64,000 nucleotides of DNA from a virus (IMGVR_UViG_3300035425_000025:1-64000); one strand, 5' to 3'. Positions 33,726-57,341 are shown, counted from the first letter of the stretch. Notes: generated from the sequence alone by a model not told the origin. Translations and numbers: made by a program.

Positions 33726-33765
33726 TCTGTACACAATGAAATTGTAATTTGAAGGGAGAAAATGC

Positions 33766-33969
33766 ATGAACACAATACCACGATACATGAAAGAATATGC
33801 CAATGCACAGCGGAAAAGTTATGTAGATAATGAATTGATGCAGAAAAAGTATAAAGATGCAGCCGTGGAAATTATAGAGCGTATTTTGAAAAATACAGAA
33901 CATGGATTGATTACAATTAATGAAGGAATGAAAGCGTTATGTGATCCAATTGATGGAATAGTTTTGTAG
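33766..33969 (+). CDS. Hypothetical protein
   Basis: 67 aa, GGGAG RBS. Confidence 0.7.
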   Translation: MNTIPRYMKEYANAQRKSYVDNELMQKKYKDAAVEIIERILKNTEHGLITINEGMKALCDPIDGIVL

Positions 33970-34057
33970 GCAGTTAGAACGGCTATGGAGAATATAAGGC
34001 TATAGCCGTTTTATAGTGCTTATAAAGGCAAATAAAGTATTGTAAGGAGTAAAAGCA

Positions 34058-34483
34058 ATGAATGATATTAGGCTTAGTTATAAAATGGCTCTAAAACTTG
34101 AAATGTATATGGAGAAAGAGATTGAAGAAATTGCTCAGGATTTTCAGAGTCTATCATGGAATTACAATGAAACATACGAGTATAAAAAAGATATGAAGGC
34201 AGGTAAAAGATCTTTTCATACTGACTATGGAATTGATAAAACATCTTATGATGACAGAGTAAAAAATTTAAGAATCCGTCAATATGAATTGTATCTTGAA
34301 TTGGAAAATTTAATAAAAGATTGTAAAGAACAGAATGACGGAAAGCCATATCTTCCATATAGTATGCATTTAAAAAGGCAATTAATTTGTATCAATCCAT
34401 CTTATGATAATGTAGCTGAGGAATTAAGAAGATTAAAAGGAACGGAGGAAAATCATGATGATAACATACAGTGGTGGATCTGA
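34058..34483 (+). CDS. Hypothetical protein
   Basis: 141 aa, AAGGAG RBS. Confidence 0.7.
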   Translation: MNDIRLSYKMALKLEMYMEKEIEEIAQDFQSLSWNYNETYEYKKDMKAGKRSFHTDYGIDKTSYDDRVKNLRIRQYELYLELENLIKDCKEQNDGKPYLPYSMHLKRQLICINPSYDNVAEELRRLKGTEENHDDNIQWWI

Positions 34484-34631
34484 AGCAATCGAAACAGTTT
34501 ACACATATGAAGAATGGCTTAAAGAATACAACCGCCAAGAAACGAAACGGAGAATTAGACAGAGGACAGAACATCTATATTATATAAAACAACGTCTATC
34601 TGGCACTATCATGGCAGCGATTGGAGGTTGA
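34455..34631 (+). CDS. 58-aa hypothetical protein
   Basis: GGAGG RBS, MMITYSGGSEAIET...; below the ORF-track cutoff. Confidence 0.55.
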   Translation: MMITYSGGSEAIETVYTYEEWLKEYNRQETKRRIRQRTEHLYYIKQRLSGTIMAAIGG

Positions 34632-34634
34632 AGA

Positions 34635-34823
34635 ATGGAAAATATTATAAACAAAATGTTAGAGCGTATCAATTTTAAAATCAGATATGCACAGGAAAAT
34701 TTTACAGAGTGGAACGCTGCACACGATAGACGGATGGCAGAAATTGACGGTATGATTGATATGTTATCAATAGTTACTGGTAAAGAATATGTTATCACAG
34801 AAAATGGACTGGAAGAAAGATGA
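34635..34823 (+). CDS. Hypothetical protein
   Basis: 62 aa, GGAGGT RBS. Confidence 0.7.
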   Translation: MENIINKMLERINFKIRYAQENFTEWNAAHDRRMAEIDGMIDMLSIVTGKEYVITENGLEER

Positions 34824-34826
34824 AAA

Positions 34827-35024
34827 TTGAGGTTAAAAATGAAAAAATACGGATTCAAAAAATTAAATAATGGATGGCGTTTTAAAATTGGTGGGACTTC
34901 TGGGGAACCGTTTGGAATTACACTAAGATATTTTAATAAATGTGGCTTCCGGCTTCTTATAAATTTCAATACGGATTTTCTTATAAATCTTTTTGGATTC
35001 AATCAAAAAATCATTGGCGTTTAA
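34827..35024 (+). CDS. Hypothetical protein
   Basis: GAGGT RBS before the internal ATG (MKKYGFK). Confidence 0.55.
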   Translation: MRLKMKKYGFKKLNNGWRFKIGGTSGEPFGITLRYFNKCGFRLLINFNTDFLINLFGFNQKIIGV

Positions 35025-36279: not shown

Positions 36280-36315
36280 GGCGATGAAAGAATCATTTGG
36301 TCAGGAGGGAATGCG

Positions 36316-37359: not shown

Positions 37360-37839
37360 ATGAATAAAAAATATTATGAGTTTGATAATAGACTGGAATT
37401 AAATAGACGCTTAAAATATTGGTCAAATGCTTGTGGTGAATTGCATCATCATGGGGAATATGATTTAAAGGATGTTTCAGAACTTCCACAAGAATTACTG
37501 AGGGCATATAATGAACTTTGGGAACAAGGAAACGGTTGTTTTGAATACTTAGTTGAGTATGATGGAAAGTATTATATTGCTCTTATAAGTGAATTTGACA
37601 ATACTTTTGCAGAAGATAGTAATGTATTAATGGAAGAACTGCATGAAATAGCTAAACAAAACGCGTTAGAATTATTTCATCAAGATTTATTCAAAGACAC
37701 TATTTTGATTATTGGAAAAGACACTGGTTTTAACGAGTGTCATGAGATTATTTTTCTTATTCCAGCAATGGAATCTAAAAATGTATATGATGAAATAGAG
37801 GACACTATATATTTGAATATTTGGAAAATGGACAAATAG
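37360..37839 (+). CDS. Hypothetical acidic protein
   Basis: 159 aa, bounded by palindromic sites. Confidence 0.75.
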   Translation: MNKKYYEFDNRLELNRRLKYWSNACGELHHHGEYDLKDVSELPQELLRAYNELWEQGNGCFEYLVEYDGKYYIALISEFDNTFAEDSNVLMEELHEIAKQNALELFHQDLFKDTILIIGKDTGFNECHEIIFLIPAMESKNVYDEIEDTIYLNIWKMDK

Positions 37840-37872
37840 AATCGGAATTTTATCCGGAGAAAGGAAAAAATT

Positions 37873-38102: not shown

Positions 38103-38384
38103 TTGAATCTCGTATTTCAACAGGAGGTAAATAAAGTGGTGACATGTAATAAATGCAGAAGAGAATGTGAATACAGGAATAAAAAATTTAAAGATGTTTC
38201 CTTATACTGTGACACTCATTGTACCTATGATTTTAAGATAGAATGTGATAAAATAGCGACAGATGATTTTCGGAAAGTAATTCAAGAATTAAAAGATGGA
38301 AATTTTTCTAATGCTGCCGTTACAGGAATATTAAAACAAGCGCAGTGCATTTTAAATGTTGCTGATAACATTATGGAGGAATGA
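38103..38384 (+). CDS. Cys-rich hypothetical protein
   Basis: CNKC...C..HC; true start probably GTG near 38138 after GGAGGT. Confidence 0.65.
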   Translation: MNLVFQQEVNKVVTCNKCRRECEYRNKKFKDVSLYCDTHCTYDFKIECDKIATDDFRKVIQELKDGNFSNAAVTGILKQAQCILNVADNIMEE

Positions 38385-38590
38385 TAACTATGAGATTGGC
38401 TCTTAATCAGAAATATTTGTATTCAAACATAGCCAAGATTGGAAGACAATGTAAAAGAACAAAGAAAGAAGAAATTGTTACATATATCGGATCAGAAGAT
38501 GATAAAGAGATTTTTCAGAAAGAATCTGGAACAGAATTATTAGTACATAAATCTGATATTGATAAGTTTATAAAGGAAATTTCACGATGA
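38381..38590 (+). CDS. Hypothetical protein
   Basis: 69 aa. Confidence 0.65.
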   Translation: MITMRLALNQKYLYSNIAKIGRQCKRTKKEEIVTYIGSEDDKEIFQKESGTELLVHKSDIDKFIKEISR

Positions 38591-38683
38591 AATGTACCTT
38601 TTCAGTCCTTTTAATTGGACACAAATAATAGTATAATGGAAACATAAACAAACAGATCAAAGTCCTACATAGTAGGCAGAAAG

Positions 38684-39152: not shown

Positions 39153-39346
39153 TGGTTGTACGTGGGAAAATAAATGGGTTTATATCATGGAACGGCTGGT
39201 ATTATGGATATATAAAATTAAAGCGTGAAAATAAGTATTACAGATCAAAAAATGTTAGGTTTGATGATACTTGTGGTGGAACAGAAGAATGTACTGAAGA
39301 GCAATATCATGAAGCGGCAGAAAAATATGCTAAAATATTTAGATGA
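39152..39346 (+). CDS. Hypothetical protein
   Basis: 64 aa, coupled. Confidence 0.65.
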   Translation: MVVRGKINGFISWNGWYYGYIKLKRENKYYRSKNVRFDDTCGGTEECTEEQYHEAAEKYAKIFR

Positions 39347-39906
39347 ATGGATTATTTCATTGGAAAAGATTGGAGGAAAATATGGAAAAGTATAAGAGCA
39401 TTGGAATTTATGAAAAAGGTGATGTGATTATGTGTGATAATATACTATTGGACGATGTTGTATGGGAAATAGCATTGATTCGAGAAATTAAGGGAGAACC
39501 ATTAGGAAGATTAAACTTGGTTAATGTTCCAGTTTATGACATAAATAGTGTAGATTGTGATATTGTTAATATATTTTCTGTAGAGGCTTGGAAAAAAATA
39601 TACGAAAGCGATTTGCTTCAAGATGCAGGATATGATGGCAGTATTTTAAATTGGTTAATTAAGCAGAAGAGAGAAATTCCTGAAGACCTTTTGGATTATG
39701 TGAGAGACCATTTTGAAGGTGACACAAGAAACCTTTTGTCTGATGCAGGTAATTTATCAAATGCCAAGTGGTTATATAAAAATGGAGCTATCTTAGAACC
39801 TGAAGGCCGCGAAAGTTCTGTAAAAGAATGGTGGGGAATGTGGCGGGATAAAAATCATGTTGAGATGTACGAATACTTTTTTGGTAAAAATGGGATATGT
39901 GCTTAA
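39343..39906 (+). CDS. Hypothetical protein with ankyrin-like C-terminal segment
   Basis: AGNLSNAKWLYKNGA. Confidence 0.55.
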   Translation: MNGLFHWKRLEENMEKYKSIGIYEKGDVIMCDNILLDDVVWEIALIREIKGEPLGRLNLVNVPVYDINSVDCDIVNIFSVEAWKKIYESDLLQDAGYDGSILNWLIKQKREIPEDLLDYVRDHFEGDTRNLLSDAGNLSNAKWLYKNGAILEPEGRESSVKEWWGMWRDKNHVEMYEYFFGKNGICA

Positions 39907-40866
39907 TTGGATGAAATGATTGCTCTATTTAAAATATTTTGGAGGAAAACATTTATGAAAATTGTAATAGAGAATATGGAAGAATTATCTAAGCGTTTAA
40001 AATATTTTTCTCAATTAAAAACAGATCAATTAAAAGAAATTTTATTATTGACATTTGAAGAAGCAAATTTTTTATTAAATGAAAAAGAAAATGGTGAGTA
40101 TACTTTTTATTTTGATGATGATAGTTGGATAAAACCAGAAAAAAATGGTATATATGTTAAAATTGGTTTTCGTAGTGACTTTATACAAGGGTTTAAGTTT
40201 CGTATGGACTTTATACAAGGTTTTATGTTTCGGGATTTTTTTTGTTGTAGTGTAAAATGGATTTATCTTTTTGATGAAAAAGGTAAATATGATATCGGTG
40301 ATTATGAGATTGAGTTTTCAAACATTTTAACTTCAAAATATAATGTATTAATGAAAAAATGGTTTGGAAAAGATTATATTATAGATTTGTTACATGCTCG
40401 TTTCCCATACGAATTTTCAGTAGATTCTTTGATTGGTTTAAAAGAAGAAACGTTAAATTATATATTCAATGATAGAAATGATAAAATGATGAATAGGGAA
40501 AAGAAAACATTAGATAAGAGGGATAATATATTTAAAAATATAAATGGACAAAGTATAGAAATGAAGTCTTTTTCAAACATTGAAACTGAATTATATAGAA
40601 AAATAGATAATTTTAGAAATTCTGATTGTTTTATATTATATGTCAGTGATGAAGTGGAAAATACTAATATTATTAAATTTAATTTTACATTAGATGAAGA
40701 TAGTGAAAAAGTATTAATAATAAAAACAAATTGTAATAAAAATGAAATTTTGTTAAGGGTAGGAAAGAACAGTGATTTTTTTGAAAATTGGCCCACATTG
40801 AAAGAAGAAATTATAAAATTTATTTCTGATTATATTCCATATGATAAATTTTATTATTTATGTTAG
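39907..40866 (+). CDS. Hypothetical protein
   Basis: About 300 aa, very AT-rich; likely start MKIVIEN after GGAGG. Confidence 0.7.
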   Translation: MDEMIALFKIFWRKTFMKIVIENMEELSKRLKYFSQLKTDQLKEILLLTFEEANFLLNEKENGEYTFYFDDDSWIKPEKNGIYVKIGFRSDFIQGFKFRMDFIQGFMFRDFFCCSVKWIYLFDEKGKYDIGDYEIEFSNILTSKYNVLMKKWFGKDYIIDLLHARFPYEFSVDSLIGLKEETLNYIFNDRNDKMMNREKKTLDKRDNIFKNINGQSIEMKSFSNIETELYRKIDNFRNSDCFILYVSDEVENTNIIKFNFTLDEDSEKVLIIKTNCNKNEILLRVGKNSDFFENWPTLKEEIIKFISDYIPYDKFYYLC

Positions 40867-41119
40867 TATATAAATTTTTTTCTAAAAAAGCCACATTTGT
40901 TTATGTGATTGAACACGACAAAAGTTTAAATGCTGCTATTGAAGAAGCTATTGGAAATATGGTCAGAGTGTAGGAGGCTGAAAGACTAAAGTATTATTTA
41001 CAGTTAAAATAATAGATTCATCCAGTGTGTTGAGGAATGGAATCGTGTAAAAGCGATTCTTTTTCTTTACATATTATTTAGAATGTGATAACATATAAAT
41101 AGAAAGGATGTGATAACAA

Positions 41120-41698
41120 GTGTCAAAAGATGATTACATTCGTTTTAGATGCTCTACTGCATTGAAAGAATTGGCAGGAAAACAAGCAGAAGAAAAAGGA
41201 ATGAATATAACTGATTATATGGAATATCTGATAAGAAAGGATGGAAATAATATGATGTATGTTTACAATACAGAGAAAATGACTGATGATATAAAAGAAA
41301 AAATTATCAATAATGGATTGGCGGTTATTATAAATGAGGTCAACTTGCTGTCAAAAGTTGACGAACTTGTAATTGATGGAAATGTAATAAAAAGCAGTTA
41401 TTCTCTTGATGAATATATTGAGATGTTTGATGGCGGAGACTATATCAAATTAGCAGGTGTTGAAGTGACAATGTTGGAGTCAATTCAAATGTTACTGGAA
41501 GAATTATACCAGCCTTGCAATAATGAAGGAATAATATATGCAGAAAGAATTTATAATTCTGATAATCCTTATGTAGAAATTAGAAAACTTATTAATGAAT
41601 TTCTTTTAATAAGAATTGATAGTGTAATGACGGAAATTCAAATGAAAATTGATCTTGTTAAAAAAGGTATAGAAGATGGAACGTTTGAATGGGGATGA
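41120..41698 (+). CDS. RHH-domain protein
   Basis: YIRFRCS..LKE.A...AEEKGMNITDYMEYLIRKD; ATGTGATAACA repeated twice upstream. Confidence 0.65.
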   Translation: MSKDDYIRFRCSTALKELAGKQAEEKGMNITDYMEYLIRKDGNNMMYVYNTEKMTDDIKEKIINNGLAVIINEVNLLSKVDELVIDGNVIKSSYSLDEYIEMFDGGDYIKLAGVEVTMLESIQMLLEELYQPCNNEGIIYAERIYNSDNPYVEIRKLINEFLLIRIDSVMTEIQMKIDLVKKGIEDGTFEWG

Positions 41699-42680
41699 AA
41701 TATATGATGAAATAGAAGTGTTCGATATGGTTAGAAAGGGAGAATTAAAAAGATACCCACATAGTTTCTGGAGTCTTGCTGATGGGAAAATTCGTGCCAT
41801 TAATATTTTAAAATATGTACTAGAAAATATTTTGAATTGGAATGATGAGGATATTGTTCAAAATTATGATGTAAATGTTTTTGGTAAATATAAAATTAGG
41901 GGGATATTGAGTCGTGTATTCAATAATTCTCCATTTGAAGCATTAAATGCTGTTTATCCCAACAAATTTAAAATATGGCAGTTTAGAGTTCCTAATAATT
42001 ATTGGAAAGAGAATGACCATGTTATAGAAGCTGTAAGGGATATTTATGAAAATAAATTAGGAATAAAAAGTATATCAGACATTTATAAAATTACGAATCA
42101 TGAAGATATTTTTGAAAAGTATGGATTGGATGCTATACCTAGAGTTCAGAAAAAATCAATTCATGATGTTATAGGAATGGCATATGCTGGATTAGAAGAA
42201 GAAAAATTTTTAAAATCAAGCGCATCTCATTATGATTTGGATAAACAAATAGAAATATTTAAACAAAAAAATAGTGATGATAATTTGACTCATGATGATA
42301 TAATACAAATGACAGCAGAACAATTTAGAAATAGTGATTTGTTTTCGGTTGCTGTAAAAAAACATCATTTAGGAATTTATGAAATAGTTGAACTGGCATA
42401 TCCGGGAGAGTATAAACCCTGGGAATTTTCTTATATTGGAAAGGGATTTTGGAAGAATGAAGAAAATATTGTGAAGGCAATTAAATGGTTATTTGAAGAA
42501 AGATTGCATATTGATCCAAAAACTACAGTACGGATTTCAAAGGAAGATTTTTATAAAAATAGTCTTGGAAGTTTAATTACTTATGGGAATATTAATCGTA
42601 TTGGAGTGAAAGAGTTAATAAGAATAGCTTATCCTGATTGCGATATTATTTTCAAGAAGAAAAAATTGGATAAAATCTAA
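41676..42680 (+). CDS. DUF4046-like repeat protein
   Basis: Repeated SP.EAL.A.YP.K.K.W.F..P..YW units. Confidence 0.7.
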   Translation: MERLNGDEIYDEIEVFDMVRKGELKRYPHSFWSLADGKIRAINILKYVLENILNWNDEDIVQNYDVNVFGKYKIRGILSRVFNNSPFEALNAVYPNKFKIWQFRVPNNYWKENDHVIEAVRDIYENKLGIKSISDIYKITNHEDIFEKYGLDAIPRVQKKSIHDVIGMAYAGLEEEKFLKSSASHYDLDKQIEIFKQKNSDDNLTHDDIIQMTAEQFRNSDLFSVAVKKHHLGIYEIVELAYPGEYKPWEFSYIGKGFWKNEENIVKAIKWLFEERLHIDPKTTVRISKEDFYKNSLGSLITYGNINRIGVKELIRIAYPDCDIIFKKKKLDKI

Positions 42681-42707
42681 GTTTTAAGTATAAAATGGAG
42701 AATAAGA

Positions 42708-43319
42708 ATGAGAGAAAGTAAATTATTTATTTCTTTGGGGATAGAATATGCTTCAAACTTATTCAAACAACCTAAAAATAGAAATATTTATGAAGATACA
42801 AATTTTCCGCCAACGAAGCCAATTATGGGTGGATTTTGGGGATCTACGTATTTGAGGACTGGAAATTTTAAATCGTACTGGGAGAAATATATTTATGAGA
42901 AACTGAATGTTAAAATGTTTGAACATAAACTTAATCATTCTTCTACAATATTTTCACTGAAAGAAAGTGCAAATATATTGTTTTTGGATAGCTTTCAAGA
43001 TATATGGATAGATATGAAATTGCAACAATCAAATTTACCACTTAGACTTGTTAAGATTGCAGGAAATGTGCCTAAACAATATGAAAATCATATGTTTTTG
43101 AATTTTGAAGATTGTGTATATGATGCAATATATGTAAGTCAAAATTTTGTGGAATGTGTAGATTATGTATTGAAAGAGTTTGAACGAAGGATATTATCTA
43201 ATGAAAATGCGGATGATTTAGCTCAAGCATTATATTTTGCGGAGATGTTTGAGGATTGGAATGTGGATTCAGTATTAGTGTTAAATAAGGATATTATTAA
43301 TGTGATTGATACTCAATAA
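42708..43319 (+). CDS. Hypothetical protein (KP.GG.W.S family; ART-like fold is a guess)
   Basis: KPIMGGFWGST, YDAIY, WNVDS.LVLN; bounded by sites. Confidence 0.5.
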   Translation: MRESKLFISLGIEYASNLFKQPKNRNIYEDTNFPPTKPIMGGFWGSTYLRTGNFKSYWEKYIYEKLNVKMFEHKLNHSSTIFSLKESANILFLDSFQDIWIDMKLQQSNLPLRLVKIAGNVPKQYENHMFLNFEDCVYDAIYVSQNFVECVDYVLKEFERRILSNENADDLAQALYFAEMFEDWNVDSVLVLNKDIINVIDTQ

Positions 43320-43384
43320 AATTAGATATTTAAGTATAAAATTAGTTATATGGACATATACTTTAAAGAATAGGGGGTGGTATA

Positions 43385-45758: not shown

Positions 45759-45760
45759 TT

Positions 45761-47624: not shown

Positions 47625-47636
47625 GCAGTTGAAAAC

Positions 47637-48107
47637 TTGATTTTATTGGAGGTTTTAATGGAAGATAATTATACTGGCGATATGATTCTGATAGATAGAT
47701 TATCAGAATTTTATCCTGTTAATAGTTGGTCATGGAATGAAGGCGAGGTTGTAGAACTTGATGACATTGCTTGTGCAATTCATGAAGGACATCCAGAGGA
47801 ATCAGAGCCGTTTGGTGATACATGGAAACATCCTTGTATGGAGAATAAATCTACTGAGTGGCATATAGGAAGGATTTTATATTTTATAAAACATCCAGAG
47901 GAAATTAGAGATATAGAGGTTGATAATCTATACAGTGGAGATTATATTTTCCCTGTACCTTCAATCATTGATGGAAACCATAGATTCATGGCAGCTATGT
48001 GGTTACAGGATCAAGGAAAGATGGGAAAAGTTCATTGTAGATATGGTGGTAGAATGGATTTGTTGGATTATCTGGTTGGGAAAACTGATGTGTGCCCTGA
48101 TGAATAG
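47637..48107 (+). CDS. ParB-like fold hypothetical protein
   Basis: IIDGNHRF.AA; likely start MEDNY after GGAGGT. Confidence 0.6.
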   Translation: MILLEVLMEDNYTGDMILIDRLSEFYPVNSWSWNEGEVVELDDIACAIHEGHPEESEPFGDTWKHPCMENKSTEWHIGRILYFIKHPEEIRDIEVDNLYSGDYIFPVPSIIDGNHRFMAAMWLQDQGKMGKVHCRYGGRMDLLDYLVGKTDVCPDE

Positions 48108-48120
48108 GCGAGGTGGTTAT

Positions 48121-48306
48121 ATGGATTATAAGGAATGGGAATCTTTAAAAACTGGAGATAGAGTAAAAAGACTTTTTGAAGGCGCAGGAACCATTATCGC
48201 AAGTTGTGGCATTGGACGTGTGGTTAGATTTGATAGTGGAAAAGTAGAAAGAATATCTGATGGAGATTTACATAAGATAGTCAGTCGAAAGAAAGGTGAC
48301 GATTAA
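48121..48306 (+). CDS. SH3-like small protein
   Basis: GAGGTG RBS; LKTGDRVK...G.GTI...VRFDSG. Confidence 0.6.
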   Translation: MDYKEWESLKTGDRVKRLFEGAGTIIASCGIGRVVRFDSGKVERISDGDLHKIVSRKKGDD

Positions 48307-48489
48307 ATGAAAGTATTATATTGTGATTGTTGTAAGCGTAAAATTGGAGACTATGAACAGGTGTATTCTATTGAAATAAAACATGGAGTTGATAATGAAT
48401 TTATATTAGATGATGTTTGCGATGAGTGTTATGAAAAATTCAAAGATATTATAGAAAATGCTGAAAGATGGAGACAAAATAGGCAATAA
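48307..48489 (+). CDS. Small Zn-finger protein
   Basis: CDCC...CDEC. Confidence 0.7.
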   Translation: MKVLYCDCCKRKIGDYEQVYSIEIKHGVDNEFILDDVCDECYEKFKDIIENAERWRQNRQ

Positions 48490-48553
48490 ATGTCTGATTT
48501 TATAGATATAGAAAAAGTATTATTGTATATTTTTGAACTAAGGAGTTAAATCT

Positions 48554-49261
48554 ATGAAAAAGTACACAGATTTGGATAAAGAATTAAAAAAAATAAGGCA
48601 TAAATGGGAATATGATTTATATGAAGTGAACTTAGAATCTCAGAATATAATTGATAAGTTTTATAAAGAAGATATTTCTGAAAATGATATGATGTGTAGA
48701 AAATATCAATTAGAATTATACCTTAATAGAAGAAATATTTTATTCTTCCCAATTATAATAACTATAATTTTTGGACTTTTGGTAAATCTAGTTTTTAATA
48801 AAATTAGTAGTATTCCTAATTTTATTGAAATGTTTCAAAAATTACAGTCCATACCTACTACGCCAGAAAATATGTTTGAACTCATAAAGTTATATGCTGT
48901 GTTAATTATTTTGTTTATTTTGGTGGTGCTTGTTTTTGTTTCTGTATTTTTTATCCCCTTCCCGCCACTTTATTTTGTGATTGAACTTGGAGAGAATAAG
49001 GTACATCAGAGGGAATACGAACTAAAAATTTTAGGGGATAAAATAAATAAAAAATTAGAAGAAAATAAAAATGGGAAAGAATATAGTTCAGATATCAGAA
49101 AAAAACCGAAAATCAAATTTATTTTTTTATCCATTTTTATGATAATCATATCTATTGTAATTGGTATATATTGGAGATTGACATTGGATAAAATATTATT
49201 AATAGATTTATTTGGCATTATGTGTGGATATTTCATAACAAAGATAGATATAGATAAATAG
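48554..49261 (+). CDS. Multi-pass membrane protein
   Basis: About 4 hydrophobic segments; bounded by sites at 48487 and 49259. Confidence 0.7.
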   Translation: MKKYTDLDKELKKIRHKWEYDLYEVNLESQNIIDKFYKEDISENDMMCRKYQLELYLNRRNILFFPIIITIIFGLLVNLVFNKISSIPNFIEMFQKLQSIPTTPENMFELIKLYAVLIILFILVVLVFVSVFFIPFPPLYFVIELGENKVHQREYELKILGDKINKKLEENKNGKEYSSDIRKKPKIKFIFLSIFMIIISIVIGIYWRLTLDKILLIDLFGIMCGYFITKIDIDK

Positions 49262-49286
49262 AATTCGATTTTCATTAGGAGGTTTT

Positions 49287-49556
49287 ATGGAAGAATTATT
49301 ACAAAGCAAAGGATTTAGTCTCAATACTTATCCAGAAGGAAAGTTTTGGGAGCTAACAGTTGAAGACAATGAGAATTTAAAATTGAAAATCTGTAAGATA
49401 TTCAATGCAGAAATTGAAGTAACTGTAAACGGATCAGATATAGAAACACTCATCTTACAATGTGCAGAGGATTTTACAAAATGTATTTTCTATTATGACT
49501 GTAATCCATTTGATATGGAAACTGATGATTTTATGAAGTGTGTGAAGAAGATATAG
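49287..49556 (+). CDS. Hypothetical protein
   Basis: AGGAGG RBS inside the site's 3' extension. Confidence 0.7.
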   Translation: MEELLQSKGFSLNTYPEGKFWELTVEDNENLKLKICKIFNAEIEVTVNGSDIETLILQCAEDFTKCIFYYDCNPFDMETDDFMKCVKKI

Positions 49557-49577
49557 TTGAAATGAAGGAGATAGATT

Positions 49578-49781
49578 ATGATAACAGGAGATAGAAAGTT
49601 AGGGTTTCAATATAGAGATTTAATTATTGAGCAACTTAAAAAAGAAATAAATCCAAGTGAAGAAAGACTACAAAAGATGATTAATAGACTTAATAATGCT
49701 TCTTCTGATGAATTAGAAAGAGTCTATGAAGCATTTGATAGATTTGGTGTGCAATCAATTATGGATGCAGTTTGTGAGTAA
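49578..49781 (+). CDS. Hypothetical protein
   Basis: 67 aa, AAGGAG RBS. Confidence 0.7.
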   Translation: MITGDRKLGFQYRDLIIEQLKKEINPSEERLQKMINRLNNASSDELERVYEAFDRFGVQSIMDAVCE

Positions 49782-49797
49782 GATTGGAGAAAATATT

Positions 49798-49950
49798 ATG
49801 AATAATGAATTGTATAGAGTAATATATAAAGGAGTAAATGGATGATTCCAGTTAAGTGATGATATGGATTTTGATGCAGCGTGTCAATTTAGAAACAAAT
49901 GTTTAAACATTGGATATGACACCGCTTATGTAATTCAGATTGTGGAGTGA
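49798..49950 (+). pseudogene. 50-codon ORF interrupted by in-frame TGA
   Basis: MNNELYRVIYKGVNG*FQLSDDMDF...; TGA at 49843-49845, frame continues to TGA 49950. Confidence 0.5.
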
Positions 49951-50261
49951 TAGTAGATATGATGGAGATGAATTATAAACCTAAATTTTATGATTGTATA
50001 TTAAATGGAATAAGAACGGAAGGAAGTAAGCACTTATTTCATTTAACAGAAAAAAACACTGATGAAAAAAATCAAATGCAGATTGAGGTGGATCAGCCAT
50101 CAGATTTGATTTTAGAAAGAATGAAGGAATGCATTCTTGGGAAAAGAAAAATACTATATTTAACCAATGGAATGAGAGATATTGATGTATCTTATCTTGG
50201 AGATAATAAATGGCAGTTATTTGATGAGTTTGATATTTTTGAGTTTGAGATGAGTGTATAA
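49947..50261 (+). CDS. Hypothetical protein
   Basis: 104 aa. Confidence 0.7.
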   Translation: MIVDMMEMNYKPKFYDCILNGIRTEGSKHLFHLTEKNTDEKNQMQIEVDQPSDLILERMKECILGKRKILYLTNGMRDIDVSYLGDNKWQLFDEFDIFEFEMSV

Positions 50262-50293
50262 GAGCAGATAATTTTTAGAGGTGATGGTTAAAA

Positions 50294-50455
50294 ATGATTA
50301 CTTGGAAATGTTTATATAAGTTGGATAAAGAAGAATTGTCAGGAATTGTAAATGACATTAAGAACGGTGAAAGTTATACTATTTTTGGTTGGGAAGATAC
50401 ATATCCGACAGATGATGATATTTTGAAGTATGCTGCTAGATGTGGGGTGAGGTGA
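50294..50455 (+). CDS. 53-aa hypothetical protein
   Basis: GAGGTG RBS; MITWKCLYKLDKEE... Confidence 0.6.
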   Translation: MITWKCLYKLDKEELSGIVNDIKNGESYTIFGWEDTYPTDDDILKYAARCGVR

Positions 50456-50460
50456 TTGAT

Positions 50461-50616
50461 ATGAATAGAAAAATGAATAATCCTTCTTGGTGCTGTGATA
50501 AGATAGAAGAATTGCTACAAGAATATAAAAATAAGCAAGAAGATTCTCATGATCCAGCAGAATATGAGACATATAAAGAAGTTATTGAAGATTTGGAGAA
50601 GATTTTATATGAATGA
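50461..50616 (+). CDS. 51-aa hypothetical protein
   Basis: GAGGTG RBS; MNRKMNNPSWCCDKIEE... Confidence 0.6.
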   Translation: MNRKMNNPSWCCDKIEELLQEYKNKQEDSHDPAEYETYKEVIEDLEKILYE

Positions 50617-51012
50617 TTGGAGAATGTGAGTATGGATAAGAAATTCAAACATGGAGATAGAGTTTATCACAGAAATTTGAAGCAATATGGATTCTTTATT
50701 GGATATGCATGGGAATCTGAGGAAGAATGCGATGTGGATTTTGAAACAGAAGATGGAGAAATTGAGCAGAAACACGTAAGTGTTAGTTGGTTGGAACCAG
50801 CGCAGAAAACATACAATAAAGAAGTTATGGAAGCTCTTAGACAGCGCAGAGGATTAGAACCTGGCGATGCATCACAGGATGCAGAAATTATGAGTATGGC
50901 GAAACAGGATATATTTAATGAATATTGCCAGTGGAATGGGTTACTTGGTGGATATGGATATTTGTTATTGAATGTTGTGGAAAATATTTATGATATAAAT
51001 TTGCAACAGTAA
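50617..51012 (+). CDS. Hypothetical protein (SH3-like N-terminus)
   Basis: KFKHGDRVYH...G. Confidence 0.7.
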   Translation: MENVSMDKKFKHGDRVYHRNLKQYGFFIGYAWESEEECDVDFETEDGEIEQKHVSVSWLEPAQKTYNKEVMEALRQRRGLEPGDASQDAEIMSMAKQDIFNEYCQWNGLLGGYGYLLLNVVENIYDINLQQ

Positions 51013-51021
51013 ATTTTTAGA

Positions 51022-51402
51022 TTGGAGGATATCATGCTTGATGTTGGATTAGATAATGGTAAATATACTTCGTGTTTAAATTGTAACGAGAAGCAAGATG
51101 AATATAGAAAAATATATTCAATTACTATAGGAAATTTGAATCCATTAAAAATAAATTTATGTACCGAATGCATGGGCGTGTTGGTTTCTAAAATGACATA
51201 TGCGTTTAATATGGAATTTCCAAATAATGATAAGACAGATTACGATACTGAATTGGAAATTGAAAGCAAATTAAGAATTTTACTTAATAAGAAAATTTCT
51301 GGAACTTGGAATGAAGATTGTCAAAAGGAATTAGATTCTCTTAACGAAGAAAAAATGTGCAATTCTCATAGATTGCTTTATAGAGATGTTTGTAATTGGT
51401 AA
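51022..51402 (+). CDS. Zn-finger hypothetical protein
   Basis: CLNC...LCTEC. Confidence 0.7.
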   Translation: MEDIMLDVGLDNGKYTSCLNCNEKQDEYRKIYSITIGNLNPLKINLCTECMGVLVSKMTYAFNMEFPNNDKTDYDTELEIESKLRILLNKKISGTWNEDCQKELDSLNEEKMCNSHRLLYRDVCNW

Positions 51403-51449
51403 ATGATAGTCTTGAAATCCGGTTTTCATTTGTATAGGGGGATAAAAAT

Positions 51450-52220
51450 ATGTTAGGAAAATTTGAATTTAATATACAAGAATATATCAGCATAAGAAGT
51501 GAAATGTGTCAGCGAATATCAGTAATTAATGCACAATCTCATACGGCTATATTAACAATAATTACTGCTTTTGGAGCAGGAATCACGCTGAACTATAACG
51601 CACAAGTTGATAAAATTGACAATATGACTGGTTTTATTTCGTTAAATATTATTCGTTGCCTTATTTTTATTATACCAATATTGTATTTATTTCCGTTAGC
51701 AGTAAAGAGTGGAGAGAATTTAATTCAGATAGCATCCTTATCTGCATATATAAGAGTTTTTTATGATTATATATCGAATGACAATAATAAGATGAATTGG
51801 GAAACATCAAATAATATTTTGAGTAATGCCAATATTGACAGAGGGAAAAGAAGTTTTTATATGAAATTTTATAATGAAGAATATACAGTATTAGCATGTA
51901 TTTCTTTTGTTTTGTATATTATATTTTCAATTATATCTATTATTATACTTGATCCAGTTATTGAGAGAAAATATTTGATTATTATTATTGCAACTTATAT
52001 TATTCTTGGAGCTGGATTAATAGAAATAATAGTGGCTATACATAAAAGTTCTGGAATGAAAAATACATTGATGAAGTATACACCTATTTATATAGAGGGT
52101 TACATTAAAAGAGCAATAGAAATGGGGATTATAAAGAATACTGATATTGAAGTAGTAAAGGAAGAACTTAATCCTTATAAAGAAATAGAAATTGGGTTTT
52201 GGAAAAGAACCAATATATAA
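51450..52220 (+). CDS. Multi-pass membrane protein (candidate defence or exclusion)
   Basis: About 4 TM segments; flanked by perfect sites at 51413 and 52229. Confidence 0.7.
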   Translation: MLGKFEFNIQEYISIRSEMCQRISVINAQSHTAILTIITAFGAGITLNYNAQVDKIDNMTGFISLNIIRCLIFIIPILYLFPLAVKSGENLIQIASLSAYIRVFYDYISNDNNKMNWETSNNILSNANIDRGKRSFYMKFYNEEYTVLACISFVLYIIFSIISIIILDPVIERKYLIIIIATYIILGAGLIEIIVAIHKSSGMKNTLMKYTPIYIEGYIKRAIEMGIIKNTDIEVVKEELNPYKEIEIGFWKRTNI

Positions 52221-52258
52221 TTATAACATGAAATGTTGCTTTCAAGAGGAGAAAAATT

Positions 52259-52474
52259 ATGATTTGCTTGGATTGTGGTAATATGGATATTAGATATGAT
52301 GAAAAAGAAAAATCGTATCATTGTAATAATTGTGGTTCTCGTAATTTAGGAAAAAGAAAAGATGGGTGTATGCATATGAGAGATAATGGATTATGTGGTA
52401 AAAATCCGGCTGCCACATCATCAGGAGAGTGTGAGGCTCCTTGTAGTTATTATGAAAGCGGTTTTAGATCATAA
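52259..52474 (+). CDS. Cys-rich Zn-ribbon protein
   Basis: CLDC...CNNC. Confidence 0.7.
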   Translation: MICLDCGNMDIRYDEKEKSYHCNNCGSRNLGKRKDGCMHMRDNGLCGKNPAATSSGECEAPCSYYESGFRS

Positions 52475-52556
52475 ATTTTGTTGACTTGTATATAATAACG
52501 ACATATAATATAAGTACAATAATCAGTACGGTTTTAAGTACGGAAAGAGGTGCGTT

Positions 52557-52814
52557 ATGATTGCAACGAAACAGATGGATGTAAGAGCAAATATAAAAAA
52601 ATATTTTGATATGGCATTTGATGGGGAACCAGTGATTGTTTCCCGTAAAGAGAATAGAAATGTTGTTATAATATCTGAAGCAGAATATAACGAATTAGCA
52701 AAAGCTAAAAAGAATGCTGAATATTTAGCGAAATTAAATAGAGCAGACGAACAGATTAAAAATGGACAGGTAGTAACAAAAACTATGGATGAACTTCTGG
52801 CAATGGAGGAATAG
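52557..52814 (+). CDS. yefM: Phd/YefM antitoxin
   Basis: EPVIVSRKENRNVVIISEAEYN...NAEYL; own promoter with GTACGG repeats. Confidence 0.85.
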   Translation: MIATKQMDVRANIKKYFDMAFDGEPVIVSRKENRNVVIISEAEYNELAKAKKNAEYLAKLNRADEQIKNGQVVTKTMDELLAMEE

Positions 52815-52817
52815 TCT

Positions 52818-53081
52818 ATGAAAATCACTTTTGCAGAAGAAGGATGGAGTGAATATCTCTATTGGCAGACTCAGGATAAGAAAATAGTAAAGAAAATAAA
52901 CCAGTTGTTACAAAGCATAGAACGTGATGGAGTATTACAGGGAATAGGTAAGCCAGAGCCATTAAAATACGGAAAGTCTGGTTCATTCAGTAGGCGAATA
53001 GATGAAGCAAATCGCTTGGTTTATGAAGTTTCTGATGACCAAATTATTGTAAAATCTTGTAAGGGACATTATAATGACTGA
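52818..53081 (+). CDS. yoeB: Txe/YoeB toxin
   Basis: W.EYLYWQ.QDKK..KKIN.L...GIGKPEPLKY...SRRIDE.NRLVY...GHY. Confidence 0.92.
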   Translation: MKITFAEEGWSEYLYWQTQDKKIVKKINQLLQSIERDGVLQGIGKPEPLKYGKSGSFSRRIDEANRLVYEVSDDQIIVKSCKGHYND

Positions 53082-53191
53082 TATAGGGGTTGAGATAATC
53101 AATCCCTATAGTTAAAATCGGAGAAGCAAAATAGGATTTAAAATGCTGTTTTTTTGGAATATAGATAAAAATATTTGTACATAAATGAGGT

Positions 53192-54082
53192 ATGAGAATG
53201 ATATGGGAATATGAAATTAATGACGATGATAAAGAATTTATAGAGAAAAATTCAAAATCCATTGAAATAAAATTAAATGGAAACAGACCTTATTTTATAG
53301 AAGATTATAAAAATCAACTAGGAGGAAGAGATTATTATTTTTCAGAGGTGAATGAAAGGCGTTGTGGAGTGGCATTTGCTTGTATCAAAAATGATACTAT
53401 ATCTAATCCATATAATAGAACGAATAGTTTAAACAAGAGATATCAAATACATTCTAAACCATCAGGATTTCCGAAATCAAAGGAAGAGAATACTGTAAAT
53501 AAAAAATTGATATTTCAACGTTGTCATTTGATTGGATATAATTTGTATAAAATAAGGAATGATAAGGGTGAAGAAAATGCGAATTTAAAAAAGATTTTTA
53601 CTGGCACACGTTTTATGAATAATGTGATGTATTATTATGAAAAAAGGATTTATAATTATGTGTACAACACAGAAAATAAAGTTTTATATCGTGTGACACC
53701 TTATTTTAAAGAGAGTAACAAACGTGACAAGCTTGTGTTTGGTGTTCAAATGGAGGCAATGTTCATTAATGAAAATGGTAATGAAGATGAAGATTTATCA
53801 TTTAACGTTTTTGTGTATAATAAGCAACCAGATATTCTTTTTGAATATGGAACTGGGGAAATTTTAAAAGATGAATCAATAAATTTAATAGAAAAAATGT
53901 CAAAAATAGATCGCAAATATATTATTAATAAAAAAAGTAAAAGGTTTCATTTAGAGTGTTGTGCTAGCGTTGGTTCTATAGACAAGGAGAAGATGCAAGA
54001 GTTTTGTGGAAAACGAGAGGAACTTAATAATTTAGAGTTTAAGTGTTATCCATGTAAAATATGTGATTCTGGTACTAAATGA
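53192..54082 (+). CDS. His-Me DNA/RNA non-specific endonuclease with C-terminal Zn module
   Basis: FQRCHLIGY, FTGTRFMN, LYRVTPYF, GVQMEA, FNVFVYN.QP; no signal peptide seen. Confidence 0.75.
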   Translation: MRMIWEYEINDDDKEFIEKNSKSIEIKLNGNRPYFIEDYKNQLGGRDYYFSEVNERRCGVAFACIKNDTISNPYNRTNSLNKRYQIHSKPSGFPKSKEENTVNKKLIFQRCHLIGYNLYKIRNDKGEENANLKKIFTGTRFMNNVMYYYEKRIYNYVYNTENKVLYRVTPYFKESNKRDKLVFGVQMEAMFINENGNEDEDLSFNVFVYNKQPDILFEYGTGEILKDESINLIEKMSKIDRKYIINKKSKRFHLECCASVGSIDKEKMQEFCGKREELNNLEFKCYPCKICDSGTK

Positions 54083-54116
54083 AAGGCTGGTTTTATCTAA
54101 TCGGATTGGAGGGTGT

Positions 54117-54260
54117 ATGAAGTGTTTGTTAAAAATATTTGGTATATTAACAATAAATGAAATCGTTCCATATAGAGAACATCCAAACCCCAAATTTGCA
54201 TATGTTTATTACGGAAAAGGATGGCATACTGTGCCGATTGAAGATATAAAAATATTGTAA
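54117..54260 (+). CDS. 47-aa hypothetical protein
   Basis: GGAGGG RBS; bounded by sites at 54080 and 54261. Confidence 0.6.
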   Translation: MKCLLKIFGILTINEIVPYREHPNPKFAYVYYGKGWHTVPIEDIKIL

Positions 54261-54304
54261 TGAAATTCTAGTTTGATGGTTTATGGACAGAAAAGAGGTG
54301 TGAT

Positions 54305-55039
54305 ATGAGTAACGATAAAGAATTCTTAAAGTTTCTTCTGGAACGATCTAAAATTGAAAGAGAACGATTTGACAGATCTGGAGTGTATGCGTATACTCAA
54401 CGCCTACTTGCTTATAACTCAAATAAGATTGAAGGTAGCACACTTACCGAGGAGCAAACAGCTTCTTTGTTTGATAATGGAACTTTGCCAAAATCAGATG
54501 ATTATTACAGAGCAAAAGATGTTGAGGAGATGAATGGTCATTTCCTAATGTTCAATAAGATGTTGGATGCATTGGATGAGTCGTTATCACAGGAACTGAT
54601 AAAGCAATTCCATTATGAGCTAAAGTCTGGAGTATTTGAAGATAGGGCTAATGGATATGCTATCGGCGATTATAAGCAGCGTCCTAATATGATTGGTATG
54701 TATCAAACTGTAAGACCTGAGAATGTTACACAACAAATGTATATACTTATGGATTGGTATAATAACCAGGAAGTAGATATTTCTGTATTGGCTGAATTTC
54801 ATGCTAGGTATGAGAGTATTCACCCTTTTCAAGATGGAAATGGTAGAACAGGCAGATTGATTCTTTTTAGAGAGTGTATGAAGAATGGTATCGTACCGAT
54901 TGTGATTGAATATGCGAATAGAAATGAGTATCTGGAGGCCATAAAAGAATATAGAGAAGAAAAAGCTCTGAGTAAACTGATAAGTTTGTTTGAAAAAGAG
55001 CAACAATTCTATTTAGAAAAGTGTAAATATTTTATGTAG
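54305..55039 (+). CDS. Fic-domain protein
   Basis: HPFQDGNGRTGR; YNSNKIEG. Confidence 0.92.
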   Translation: MSNDKEFLKFLLERSKIERERFDRSGVYAYTQRLLAYNSNKIEGSTLTEEQTASLFDNGTLPKSDDYYRAKDVEEMNGHFLMFNKMLDALDESLSQELIKQFHYELKSGVFEDRANGYAIGDYKQRPNMIGMYQTVRPENVTQQMYILMDWYNNQEVDISVLAEFHARYESIHPFQDGNGRTGRLILFRECMKNGIVPIVIEYANRNEYLEAIKEYREEKALSKLISLFEKEQQFYLEKCKYFM

Positions 55040-55059
55040 AATATATTGGAGGTGATAAA

Positions 55060-55338
55060 GTGGTAAAATTAAAAGTTGGAAGAAATGTATTTGATATAGA
55101 TAATAATGATTTAATTCTTGATAATGGTGCTTGTTATCAAATTATAACTAAAGAAATTAGAAAAGGTTTTGATAGAATTACTCCTAAAATAAGTAGTAAA
55201 TTATTTAATGATTTAAAAAAGTATGAATTGATATTTACAAGTGAAGAATTAAGACAAGTTGCAATTGAAAAGTATGGAAATTTTGTAGTGACATTTTGGA
55301 AATTTAATATCGATCAAATGCAGAAAATGGGTTATTAG
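55060..55338 (+). CDS. Hypothetical protein
   Basis: GGAGGTG RBS. Confidence 0.7.
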   Translation: MVKLKVGRNVFDIDNNDLILDNGACYQIITKEIRKGFDRITPKISSKLFNDLKKYELIFTSEELRQVAIEKYGNFVVTFWKFNIDQMQKMGY

Positions 55339-55375
55339 CAGATGAATGTTCAGCTTTATTTGGAGATAAATATTT

Positions 55376-56281
55376 ATGGAAAAATTAATAAATACAATTG
55401 AAGATTTTTTGAAAGCATCTTTTCAGATACAAGAATATATAGAATTATACAACAATGATTGGAAAGCTACTCATCATAAGGGATTAGCTTTTAGGGGTCA
55501 ATCAAATAAAAGCTATGAATTAGTTCCATCCATCGGAAGAGATAGAAAATTTTCTTGTGATGTTTCTATTTTAAATCAAGAGCGAAATTTAATAGAAATG
55601 GCAAAATATAAATTGCCGCATATATTTCGATCAGATTTATTGCCGATTGATTTATTATCTTTGTTGCAACATTATGGAATACCTACGAGATTATTAGATG
55701 TAACTTCAAATCCATTAGTATCACTATATTTTGCTTCTATGGATGATAATGAAGATGGAGAAGTAGTTGTTTTTGAGTATAATGATAGTGATAGAGCTAA
55801 TTACCCAATTATTAATGCAATTTCTGAATCGTATAAATTTGCATTTGGAACATTTAATCCTCTTTCTTTGTTTTTTAATGACGCAATTAAGCAACCATAT
55901 TTTTCAGAGCAAATAAGTTTTCTTAGTAATGAGGATAATAAAGCTGGCGGGCGTTGGGTAAAGGAATGTTGTAGTGATTTGATTTTTGTGAATGCAACTG
56001 AACAGATAGAGCGACAAAAATTACAGCAAGGATTTTACATATTATTTCCTAATGAAATAACTGAATATGGAAACGATGACTATTGTTTCAATAAAATAAT
56101 TGAGCCAATTGATAAAAACAATAAACAGATTAAAGAAAGACTGATTATTAAAAAAGAAGGCAAGAAAGAGATCCGTAAAAAATTAGAATTTTTAGGGATT
56201 TGTGAAGCAACATTATTTGCTGACAATACAGATATCGTATGTAAAAGCATAGTAAATCAATGTAAAAAGATACGGTATTAA
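55376..56281 (+). CDS. FRG-domain protein
   Basis: AFRGQS...LVPSIGR, LLQHYGIPTRLLDVTSNPLV.LYFA. Confidence 0.9.
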   Translation: MEKLINTIEDFLKASFQIQEYIELYNNDWKATHHKGLAFRGQSNKSYELVPSIGRDRKFSCDVSILNQERNLIEMAKYKLPHIFRSDLLPIDLLSLLQHYGIPTRLLDVTSNPLVSLYFASMDDNEDGEVVVFEYNDSDRANYPIINAISESYKFAFGTFNPLSLFFNDAIKQPYFSEQISFLSNEDNKAGGRWVKECCSDLIFVNATEQIERQKLQQGFYILFPNEITEYGNDDYCFNKIIEPIDKNNKQIKERLIIKKEGKKEIRKKLEFLGICEATLFADNTDIVCKSIVNQCKKIRY

Positions 56282-56316
56282 AAGTGAAATTTAATTGGTA
56301 CTGAAGGAGAAAATAA

Positions 56317-57327
56317 ATGGAAAATACTAATATATTAGTTATAGGCAATGGATTTGATTTATATCATGAATTAAAAACAAGTTACACAGATTTTGTCAGA
56401 TTTTGTGAAGAAATATTAAAGACAGAAAAAGGAACCAAGGGCAGAAAGTGGGCTATAAGTAATTCTTTTGTAAATTGTTTTATAAAGGTGGCTTCCGAAA
56501 ATCAAAAGTGGATTGATTGTGAGAGAGAAATAGAAAAAATTGTAACTATGTTTTTGAAAATAATGCATGATAGAAATGTTTTTGATATCATTCCTCATTA
56601 TATAGATAAGGACAATACTACGCTTGAACCGTATGAGTTTGATATACTAAGATTAATGAATAGGTTTTGTGAAATGTCAAATATACAGAAAATAAAGATA
56701 CGAGATGATTACTTTAAAACTTATGAGGGAATTAATAAAAAATTAGTGATGGAAAAACTAAAAGATGATTTAAATGATTTAATTAATCTGTTTAAGTATT
56801 ATTTGGAGGAGAAAGTAATAAACCAACCAGTTAAAAAGTTTTCTAAACAAATAGAAAAAATAAACCCGGATTATGTTATAAATTTTAATTATACTAATAC
56901 ATGTGAAAAATATGGTGTAAATAAGCAGGACATATGTTATATACATGGATCAGTACAGGATAATAATATGGTGTTGGGAATAAGAGATATTGATGAAAAG
57001 GATATAAATTCCATATATTTTAAAAAATTTTTTCAAAGGATACAAAAGCATACAGATACAATTCAATGGAATAGGTTCGGAGAAAATCGAAGTCATACTG
57101 AAACAACGAGAGAAGCTACTACATATTTTTTTGGTCATTCTTTAAGTAATACAGATGGTGATATAATACGAAGTATATTTGAAAACTCATGTAAAATAAT
57201 CATCTTTCATTTATATGGGAAAAAAGATTATGAAGAAAAGGTTATTAATCTTATAGACACACTGGGAAAAGAAAATGTTATACAAGGAATATATTCTGGG
57301 CGTATTGAACTTGTTCCAATAAAATAA
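56317..57327 (+). CDS. AbiH-family abortive-infection protein
   Basis: ILVIGNGFDL.H.LKTSY.DF, INFNYT, YIHG, FFGHSL..TD. Confidence 0.85.
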   Translation: MENTNILVIGNGFDLYHELKTSYTDFVRFCEEILKTEKGTKGRKWAISNSFVNCFIKVASENQKWIDCEREIEKIVTMFLKIMHDRNVFDIIPHYIDKDNTTLEPYEFDILRLMNRFCEMSNIQKIKIRDDYFKTYEGINKKLVMEKLKDDLNDLINLFKYYLEEKVINQPVKKFSKQIEKINPDYVINFNYTNTCEKYGVNKQDICYIHGSVQDNNMVLGIRDIDEKDINSIYFKKFFQRIQKHTDTIQWNRFGENRSHTETTREATTYFFGHSLSNTDGDIIRSIFENSCKIIIFHLYGKKDYEEKVINLIDTLGKENVIQGIYSGRIELVPIK

Positions 57328-57341
57328 CTATTTTGCCATAT

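Follow-up and report, generated by a model that had tools for sequence, protein, structure and literature searches.

Palindromic junction sites with position-specific centres as putative points of in-register gene exchange in SPbeta-like phages

The virus contig IMGVR_UViG_3300035425_000025, the first 64,000 nucleotides of which (the window) were analysed here, carries a long series of small genes whose junctions are occupied by copies of a 16-base-pair (bp) palindromic site, in which two inverted 5-bp arms enclose a 6-bp centre. As judged from sequence comparison, these sites are real, occur family-wide and mark points at which genes are exchanged in register, and with moderate confidence we read them as fixed, address-coded recombination joints of SPbeta-like phages. 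The complete contig, from the IMG/VR collection, measures 74,102 bp and is estimated to be approximately 40% complete. It was compared, as G000, with four related phage contigs (G001-G004, of which G001 is a 150-kb provirus) retrieved through their homology to P0001, a tyrosine recombinase embedded in the array. Contigs from other mouse-gut metagenome studies (X6, X7 and X9) were aligned to window positions 40000-59900, X1-X4 being left out as possibly representing the source sample.

The junction motif and its centres

The consensus of the sites is T-R-A-A-W N6 W-T-T-Y-A; beyond the 5 bp of each arm, the information content does not exceed background. The window contains 14 perfect matches against 4.08 expected, a number reached by none of 100 shuffles; this expectation agrees with a preliminary description of the same DNA, which had estimated one perfect chance match per 15-20 kb. 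Matches with one mismatch are at chance level across the window (82 against 71 expected), so that only their location makes them count. When up to two mismatches are allowed, the motif is found in approximately 17 of the 19 plus-strand intergenic spacers of 25-48 nucleotides (nt) between 32.6 and 56.3 kb, immediately upstream of the ribosome-binding site (RBS), and about 25 gene units in the window carry it just 3' of the stop codon. The site starts no more than 11 nt from the upstream stop codon in 21 of 24 cases, and in nine of the 24 the left arm is itself the stop codon, which bears out an earlier remark that it often is. The gap of 6 is specific, with nine perfect copies in the right half of the window versus zero to four at other gaps, and no general excess of inverted repeats was detected in the window, from which this motif alone stands out. 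In the five genomes taken together, junctions between genes account for about 20% of the sequence and contain 83 of the 98 perfect sites; up to 75 junction copies per genome are present when one arm mismatch is allowed. The slots carry 0-3 genes each, of widely differing sizes. As the 25-48-nt spacers also hold the next RBS, they leave no room for a promoter, and the units are thus promoterless, as the preliminary description had supposed.

No centre is duplicated inside any genome examined, in keeping with the earlier observation that all spacers in the window differ, and the centres of one genome were not significantly more different from each other than expected by chance. Between genomes, centres are shared and in the same order. 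G000 and G001 have 29 centres in common, all of them collinear, where controls gave 0-1.4. G001 and G004 have 34 in common, and 33 of these follow the same order along more than 60 kb. Overall, controls with reversed centres gave 0 shared centres and those with shuffled letters 0.3-1.8. Collinearity holds in all pairs of the five genomes, and an identical centre order was found in prophages of cultured Lachnospiraceae isolates.

The DNA between the sites is, for the most part, unrelated. Among 190 same-centre pairs, which were selected by their centre and for which it is the collinearity statistics that carry the argument, the 80-nt flanks were homologous on neither side in 161, on the left only in nine, on the right only in 15 and on both sides in five. 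Segments between consecutive shared sites were unrelated even by tblastx in 112 instances, near-identical in 29, partly so in 23 and similar at the protein level alone in two, and this bimodal similarity points to replacement rather than to divergence. No cassette was found at more than one slot in the genomes and isolate prophages compared. In pairs with unrelated flanks, slot-specific conservation is restricted to the 6-nt centre, the flanks show no conservation independent of the slot, and the R (position 2) and Y (position 15) arm positions are approximately 0.54 identical within a slot versus 0.42-0.48 between slots. Since the centre is conserved per slot while the arm positions vary, the centre is the sole constant of a slot.

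Sites, breakpoints and distribution

The preliminary description had proposed that breakpoints of gene gain, loss and reordering be sought at the sites. The homology breaks of the relatives do fall there, and the sites mark where genes have been gained, lost and replaced. Over all genome pairs, 18% of BLAST block ends lie no more than 3 nt from a site, versus 1.5% of random positions and 6.7% of random intergenic positions. Recent events, taken as those in which one flank is identical and the other unrelated, numbered 37 after de-duplication, and all 37 breaks fell between -8 and +19 of the site. In 18 of the 19 events with an identical left flank, identity extended through the left arm and the centre, and the sequences diverged at position 13-14 or just beyond the site.

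The individual sites of the array, all on the plus strand, are as follows. The leftmost, at 32672-32687 (centre caatta, one mismatch, left arm serving as stop codon), has the same centre in G001 in collinear position. That at 33737-33752 (ttgtaa) is kept in G001 and G002, and homology to L004 begins at its edge, at 33736; the degenerate site at 36285-36300 (gaatca, two mismatches) is represented by a one-base variant, gaatcg, in the same two relatives. The centre tcggaa at 37837-37852, where a TAG left arm is the stop codon, is present in G001, G002 and G003, and ctcgta at 38104-38119 is kept in G002 and G003. At 38588-38603 (tgtacc) the right arm has decayed, and homology to L003 begins at 38587. 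The site at 39344-39359 (ggatta) and a degenerate one at 39912-39927 (tgattg) are both kept in G001-G003. Contigs of X7 and X9 start at 41007, in the site at 41005-41020 (taatag), and contigs of both stop at 43332, the last base of 43317-43332 (ttagat); X7 also has a joint, 42688>43312, that leads from the perfect site at 42671-42686 (tctaag) to this one.

Further along, the perfect sites at 45124-45139 (tcatcg), both flanks of which are unrelated in G001, and at 46787-46802 (gattga), found in all four relatives, bound the X9 joint 45119>46786. Homology to L008 begins at 46786 and stops at 48502, the end of 48487-48502 (gtctga), to the left of which lies the perfect site at 47630-47645 (acttga); from 48487-48502 the X7 joint 48506>49262 leads to 49259-49274 (ttcgat; TAG left arm as stop codon, centre in all four relatives). 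At the perfect site 51413-51428 (tccggt), homology to L003 stops (51429) and an X7 contig starts (51428). The next perfect site, at 52229-52244 (tgttgc), keeps its centre in each of the four relatives, and five combinations of arms are found around this centre. This site is followed by 53139-53154 (tgctgt), by the perfect site at 54080-54095 (ggctgg), whose TGA left arm is the stop codon, by 54261-54276 (ttctag), where an X9 contig stops at 54278, and by the degenerate 55343-55358 (gttcag), at the edge of which homology to L004 begins (55342). An X6 contig stops at 56294, the last base of 56279-56294 (gtgaaa), and both X7 and X9 join 56292 to 57343 (56292>57343), beyond the site at 57320-57335 (taacta), which closes the span covered by the preliminary description. 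A perfect site at 59294-59309 (ttatgg) is kept in G001. The two remaining perfect sites listed, to which no strand is assigned, are that at 11775-11790 (ttggag), 7 nt past the stop codon of a second tyrosine recombinase gene, P0002, and kept in G001 (30664) and G002 (42378), and that at 16778-16793 (tcttcc) in the minus-strand arm, also kept in G001 (34379) and G002 (47334).

Thus, when the window is compared with related phages, raw BLAST blocks begin or end at site edges at 33736, 38587, 46786, 48502, 51429 and 55342, and the metagenome contig ends at 41007, 43332, 51428, 54278, 56294 and 57343 are likewise all site edges. The X9 joint 45119>46786 replaces 1868 nt, including the recombinase slot, and a second X9 joint, 51013>51411, replaces 305 nt; all metagenome joints are replacements or slot deletions, and never reorderings. 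The eight perfect copies first reported (42671, 45124, 47630, 51413, 52229, 54080, 11775 and 59294) and the ten with one mismatch are all present. Three of the weaker copies reported with them, at 38588, 36285 and 55343, are supported by relatives, and the fourth, at 37325, is not; that first list was also incomplete, in that it missed 32672, 39344, 39912, 41005 and 46787.

Three further matches deserve mention. A perfect copy at 55410 is intragenic and is probably a chance match. The motif-like TTAAA tcagtg TTTTA at 60828 abuts the 3' end of a transfer RNA (tRNA) gene, tRNA-Met, and lies in DNA conserved in relatives, and is on these grounds probably no junction site. A degenerate site at 51004-51019 (CAACA gtaaat TTTTA), kept in G001, coincides with the replacement joint 51013>51411 of X9, and decayed sites may still mark exchange points.

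The position of the crossover was approached through the arms of same-centre pairs. Where both flanks are homologous, identity is 0.97 at the left arm (position 2) and 0.98 at the right arm (position 15). Where only the left flank is homologous the values are 0.78 and 0.67, where only the right flank is homologous 0.65 and 0.85, and where neither is 0.54 and 0.53, respectively. These values suggest that the arms travel partly with the cargo of their own side, as would be expected if many crossovers fell between the arms. The overall pattern is consistent with an exchange at any point of a shared core of 12-16 bp or at its edges, and does not tell a tyrosine-recombinase crossover from short-homology recombination.

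The arms are conserved between Bacillus and Lachnospiraceae phages. A second clade of Lachnospiraceae phages, in which the array recombinase is approximately 40% identical to that of the first clade and the terminase only 23%, shares these arms and has a collinear series of centres of its own. Several of these centres are one base off first-clade centres and stand in the same order, forming a collinear chain of 6 (P=0.0035 with shuffled letters, P=0.06 with permuted order, and not significant in a noisier version of the test), so that an address homology between the two clades is suggestive only. In SPbeta (NC_001884), 58 perfect sites are present at gap 6, mostly TAAAA-N6-TTTTA, as compared with 14-27 at other gaps of 2-9, and many of these copies have the stop codon of the upstream gene as their left arm. 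The centres that SPbeta has in common with phi3T number 34, compared with 1.95 for the control. In 15 of the 34 the flanking DNA is unrelated on at least one side; examples are found after yoqD, around yorS/yorT/mtbP, in yosC-yosG and before yotB/yotC. In SPbeta, a gap of 10 is frequent too (42 copies), which may reflect A/T-tract periodicity or a second spacing class. The motif is mentioned neither in a review of SPbeta nor in the paper on its repressor MrpR (PMC10516654), and the literature searched, which did not extend to most subscription journals or to the 1999 paper on the SPbeta genome, contained no account of it for phages of the SPbeta type or of Lachnospiraceae.

Candidate recombinases and rival explanations

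In the mechanism that we propose, each gene unit ends in a site whose inverted arms, TRAA(W)/(W)TTYA, could be bound by a dimeric protein and whose 6-bp centre is unique to its position. In a cell that contains two related phages, crossing over in or at such a site would pair it with the site of the same centre in the other genome, a match that exchange would require. One crossover would swap everything to one side, in register, and two would replace a single slot. The order and spacing of the array would thus stay, and its cargo of 0-3 promoterless genes would turn over; in the window this cargo includes ArdA, GmrSD-like, Fic, FRG, AbiH and nuclease genes. The catalyst would be a site-specific tyrosine recombinase acting on heterospecific sites in the manner of Cre, FLP or Xer, for which the YomM-like P0002 and the array-embedded P0001 are the candidates. 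In its fullest form, which we put forward only tentatively, the system would be a natural recombinase-mediated cassette exchange, extending in SPbeta-like phages from Bacillus subtilis to gut Lachnospiraceae, with approximately 40-75 ordered heterospecific sites per genome, shared 5-bp arms, unique 6-bp centres and a dedicated phage tyrosine recombinase (YomM family/P0002 or P0001).

Both recombinases had been noticed in the preliminary description, and the catalytic residues R-K-HxxR-H-Y are intact in each. P0001 (286 amino acids, 45761-46621, plus strand; Pfam PF00589, PHROG integrase) consists of a catalytic domain with a C-terminal tail of approximately 75 amino acids and lacks the N-terminal core-binding domain. 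Its catalytic residues are conserved in homologues at 35-90% identity, and it is located inside the array in all first-clade genomes. P0002 (336 amino acids, 11798-12808, minus strand; PHROG integrase) is a full-length tyrosine recombinase and a homologue of SPbeta YomM (27% identity, E=6e-24). In X9, the slot containing P0001 and its three upstream genes, from site 45124 to site 46787, has been swapped for 1868 other bases, so that the gene of this candidate enzyme itself behaves as exchangeable cargo. Homologues of P0001 at approximately 40% identity occur together with the motif, and a group at approximately 32% identity has no motif within 10 kb on either side; P0002/YomM homologues are present in both groups. 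P0001 has no significant similarity to YopP or YopR of SPbeta, sequence searches of the PDB with P0001 and P0002 gave zero matches, and the AlphaFold model of P0001 is poor, with a predicted local distance difference test (pLDDT) score of 61.

Several points weigh against address-coded joints served by such an enzyme. A clean crossover at the borders of the centre predicts near-complete linkage of each arm to its near flank and none to the far flank; the linkage found is only partial, at approximately 0.82 for the near side versus 0.66 for the far side, over a baseline of 0.5. Thirty-one of the 37 recent events are compatible with a crossover at the centre border, and in the other six there is an arm mismatch on the homologous side. 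Since pairs were selected by their centre, their 100% centre identity is partly a matter of ascertainment. The 5 bp conserved in each arm are short for the binding arm of a tyrosine recombinase. Finally, both P0001 and P0002 have homologues in a group of phages in which the region around the P0001 homologue is devoid of the motif, and no enzyme is tied to the sites by co-occurrence.

A different view of the same data, which we consider possible although somewhat unlikely, is that the palindrome is mainly a binding site for a regulatory protein, one of many stoperator-like small operators that silence or punctuate a long early transcription unit. Swapping would then be a by-product of short-homology recombination through a phage annealing protein of the Sak4/RecT type, host RecA or template switching, which would resolve at the sites because they are the only sequences common to otherwise unrelated cassettes. 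The distribution of breakpoints over the entire 16-mer and its edges, and not the centre alone, speaks for this. SPbeta has genes for an annealing protein resembling Sak4, a nuclease resembling RecJ and a Holliday-junction resolvase, and these leave room for a homology-driven route. A repressor with a recombinase fold acting at many sites is known from SPbeta itself, in the form of MrpR on SPBRE (PMC10516654), and the PeSL (promoter-early stem-loop) cassettes of T4-type phages are shuffled via homologous recombination (PMC2839356, PMC4122927). However, an identity of 12-16 bp is very short for homologous recombination, P0001 and P0002 keep their catalytic residues, unlike MrpR, and an operator does not account for the preservation of the centre in each slot alongside randomised R and Y arm positions. 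It had been suggested at the outset that spacers conserved as in an operator would count against recombination. They are indeed conserved per slot between genomes, but they differ between sites, the opposite of what an operator would show, and this combination argues for a crossover region that must match, and against both an operator and an RNA element.

The preliminary description had itself favoured an integron-like system with capture and shuffling of cassettes. In such a system a single cassette would leave the array as a circle, and the adjacent integrase would capture it at a dedicated site and shuffle the order. The promoterless, site-bounded units and a recombinase gene with a perfect site at its 3' end would suit such a system. 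We nevertheless consider it improbable, and the analogy fails on site structure, on the fixed order and on the missing capture site. The 16-bp sites have negligible hairpin energy, unlike attC, and no single entry point of the attI type was seen. Neighbouring sites differ in their centre, with none duplicated in a genome, and the metagenome joints are replacements or slot deletions without reordering. Slot order is fixed, and the collinearity of centres across the five genomes and the isolate prophages checked contradicts the proposed shuffling of cassettes.

An RNA element of the polycistronic transcript, that is, a hairpin for processing (the alternative raised earlier), stabilisation, termination or translational coupling, would fit the complementary arms and a location that is preceded by a stop codon and followed by an RBS, but is highly improbable, as the predicted stems of 0 to -3.3 kcal/mol (z-scores -1.85 to +0.56) are no better than those of shuffled sequence, positions 2/15 and 5/12 lack covariation, with A-C, G-G, A-A and T-T combinations common, loop identity per slot has no RNA rationale, and a search of the whole window with Rfam at gathering thresholds returned five tRNAs and no family at the junction sites. 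RNA metatranscriptome contigs (X16) span parts of 41-53 kb and are of a kind unable to reveal RNA ends or processing.

If the sites are indeed address-coded recombination joints, they would provide a mechanistic handle on phage mosaicism, with accessory genes turning over, genome architecture being kept and recombination channelled to numbered joints. Relatives infecting the same cell could then trade genes for defence and counter-defence one slot at a time with their genome order undisturbed, the accessory genes concerned in the window including anti-restriction, abortive-infection, Fic, nuclease and toxin genes. As the same sites are present in SPbeta and phi3T, two phages amenable to genetics in Bacillus subtilis, the proposal is directly testable. 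It would also offer a candidate function for YomM, a conserved but unexplained tyrosine recombinase and, were the recombinase model true, a natural set of orthogonal recombination sites for engineering.

Genomic setting and comparison with known systems

The window has an SPbeta-like layout and comes from a prophage of Lachnospiraceae of the mouse gut. Up to approximately 27.5 kb the genes lie on the minus strand and include those for the terminase, structural proteins, a ParB-like protein and a tyrosine recombinase; beyond this point, as also seen in the GC skew, they lie on the plus strand. The plus-strand part encodes, among its small genes, ArdA, DUF4046, DUF6551, DUF6618, the short tyrosine recombinase, GmrSD_N, an NS-type nuclease, Fic, FRG, AbiH and MazF. 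Close relatives are mouse-gut Lachnospiraceae prophages, including those of Acetatifactor muris DSM 23669, bacterium 1xD42-87 and strains A4 and MD308, and a megablast search of a 17-kb region against a phage collection gave zero matches. The phage tRNA genes are Ser-tga (7858-7952), Tyr-gta (10709-10791) and Ile-tat (16980-17055) on the minus strand and Gln-ttg (60679-60750) and Met-cat (60754-60827) on the plus strand. A hammerhead ribozyme at 29273-29332 and a twister ribozyme at 33056-33185 were unsupported at Rfam gathering thresholds, no more sensitive scan having been run.

Two other features were observed outside the array. A homing-endonuclease-like gene (8411-9682, minus strand; PHROG 9084/7140) lies amid packaging and structural genes. 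An XRE-type helix-turn-helix gene (59347-59568, minus strand) stands opposite a MazF/PemK toxin gene that is followed by a 91-amino-acid open reading frame (59749-60395, plus strand). In SPbeta, YopM has been reported to work through MazE/MazF (PMC10516654). The helix-turn-helix and MazF/PemK pair may be part of lysogeny or abortive-infection control.

As regards known systems, the heterospecific lox and FRT sites used for recombinase-mediated cassette exchange are man-made and have 13-bp arms and an 8-bp centre. The sites described here resemble them in combining the same arms with differing centres, such that only like-numbered sites would recombine and the segment between would be replaced in register, catalysis here being putative. 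We know of no natural array of dozens of heterospecific sites of the lox/FRT type. With inverted arms around a 6-bp centre conserved per slot, the sites also appear similar to the core sites of Cre, FLP and Xer, in which the arms enclose a crossover region of 6-8 bp that has to be the same in both partners. The attC sites of integrons, on the other hand, are imperfect inverted repeats of approximately 57-141 bp that fold as structured single strands. The likeness to integrons consists in promoterless, site-bounded gene units with a tyrosine recombinase gene nearby; here, however, there is no attC structure, attI or Pc, and the order is fixed and not driven by capture.

Stoperators of phage L5 are asymmetric 13-mers. 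The SPBRE of SPbeta is a fully conserved 15-bp motif found in about 10 promoter regions, where it is bound by MrpR, a catalytically dead protein of the tyrosine-recombinase fold (PMC10516654). The array has in common with both that many copies of a short intergenic motif are present in a large temperate phage. It differs from SPBRE/MrpR in that its sites have a variable centre, lie at stop codons, number at least 25 per 25 kb and occur alongside catalytically intact recombinases.

The pdif sites of Acinetobacter plasmids measure 28 bp, with 11-bp XerC and XerD arms, and make use of the host Xer proteins (PMC6449649). As in our case, many palindromic sites with a 6-bp centre flank modules of accessory genes that pass from one replicon to another, but here only 5 bp per arm are conserved, and the sites form an ordered array with position-specific centres. 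The PeSL cassettes of T4-type phages are units of a sigma-70 early promoter and a terminator stem-loop that are similar to one another and recombine by homology, also between positions, as mini-circles (PMC2839356, PMC4122927). They too are short, recur in the intergenic DNA between the accessory genes of hyperplastic regions and mark the exchange points of unrelated genes between related phages. The sites described here, in contrast, are 16 bp long and without promoter or stable stem, and their centres differ from copy to copy and are retained at each position, so that exchange stays in register. PeSL cassettes (PMC2839356, PMC4122927) and pdif modules (PMC6449649) are thus the closest described systems, and the ordered array of heterospecific sites is a novel variation on them.

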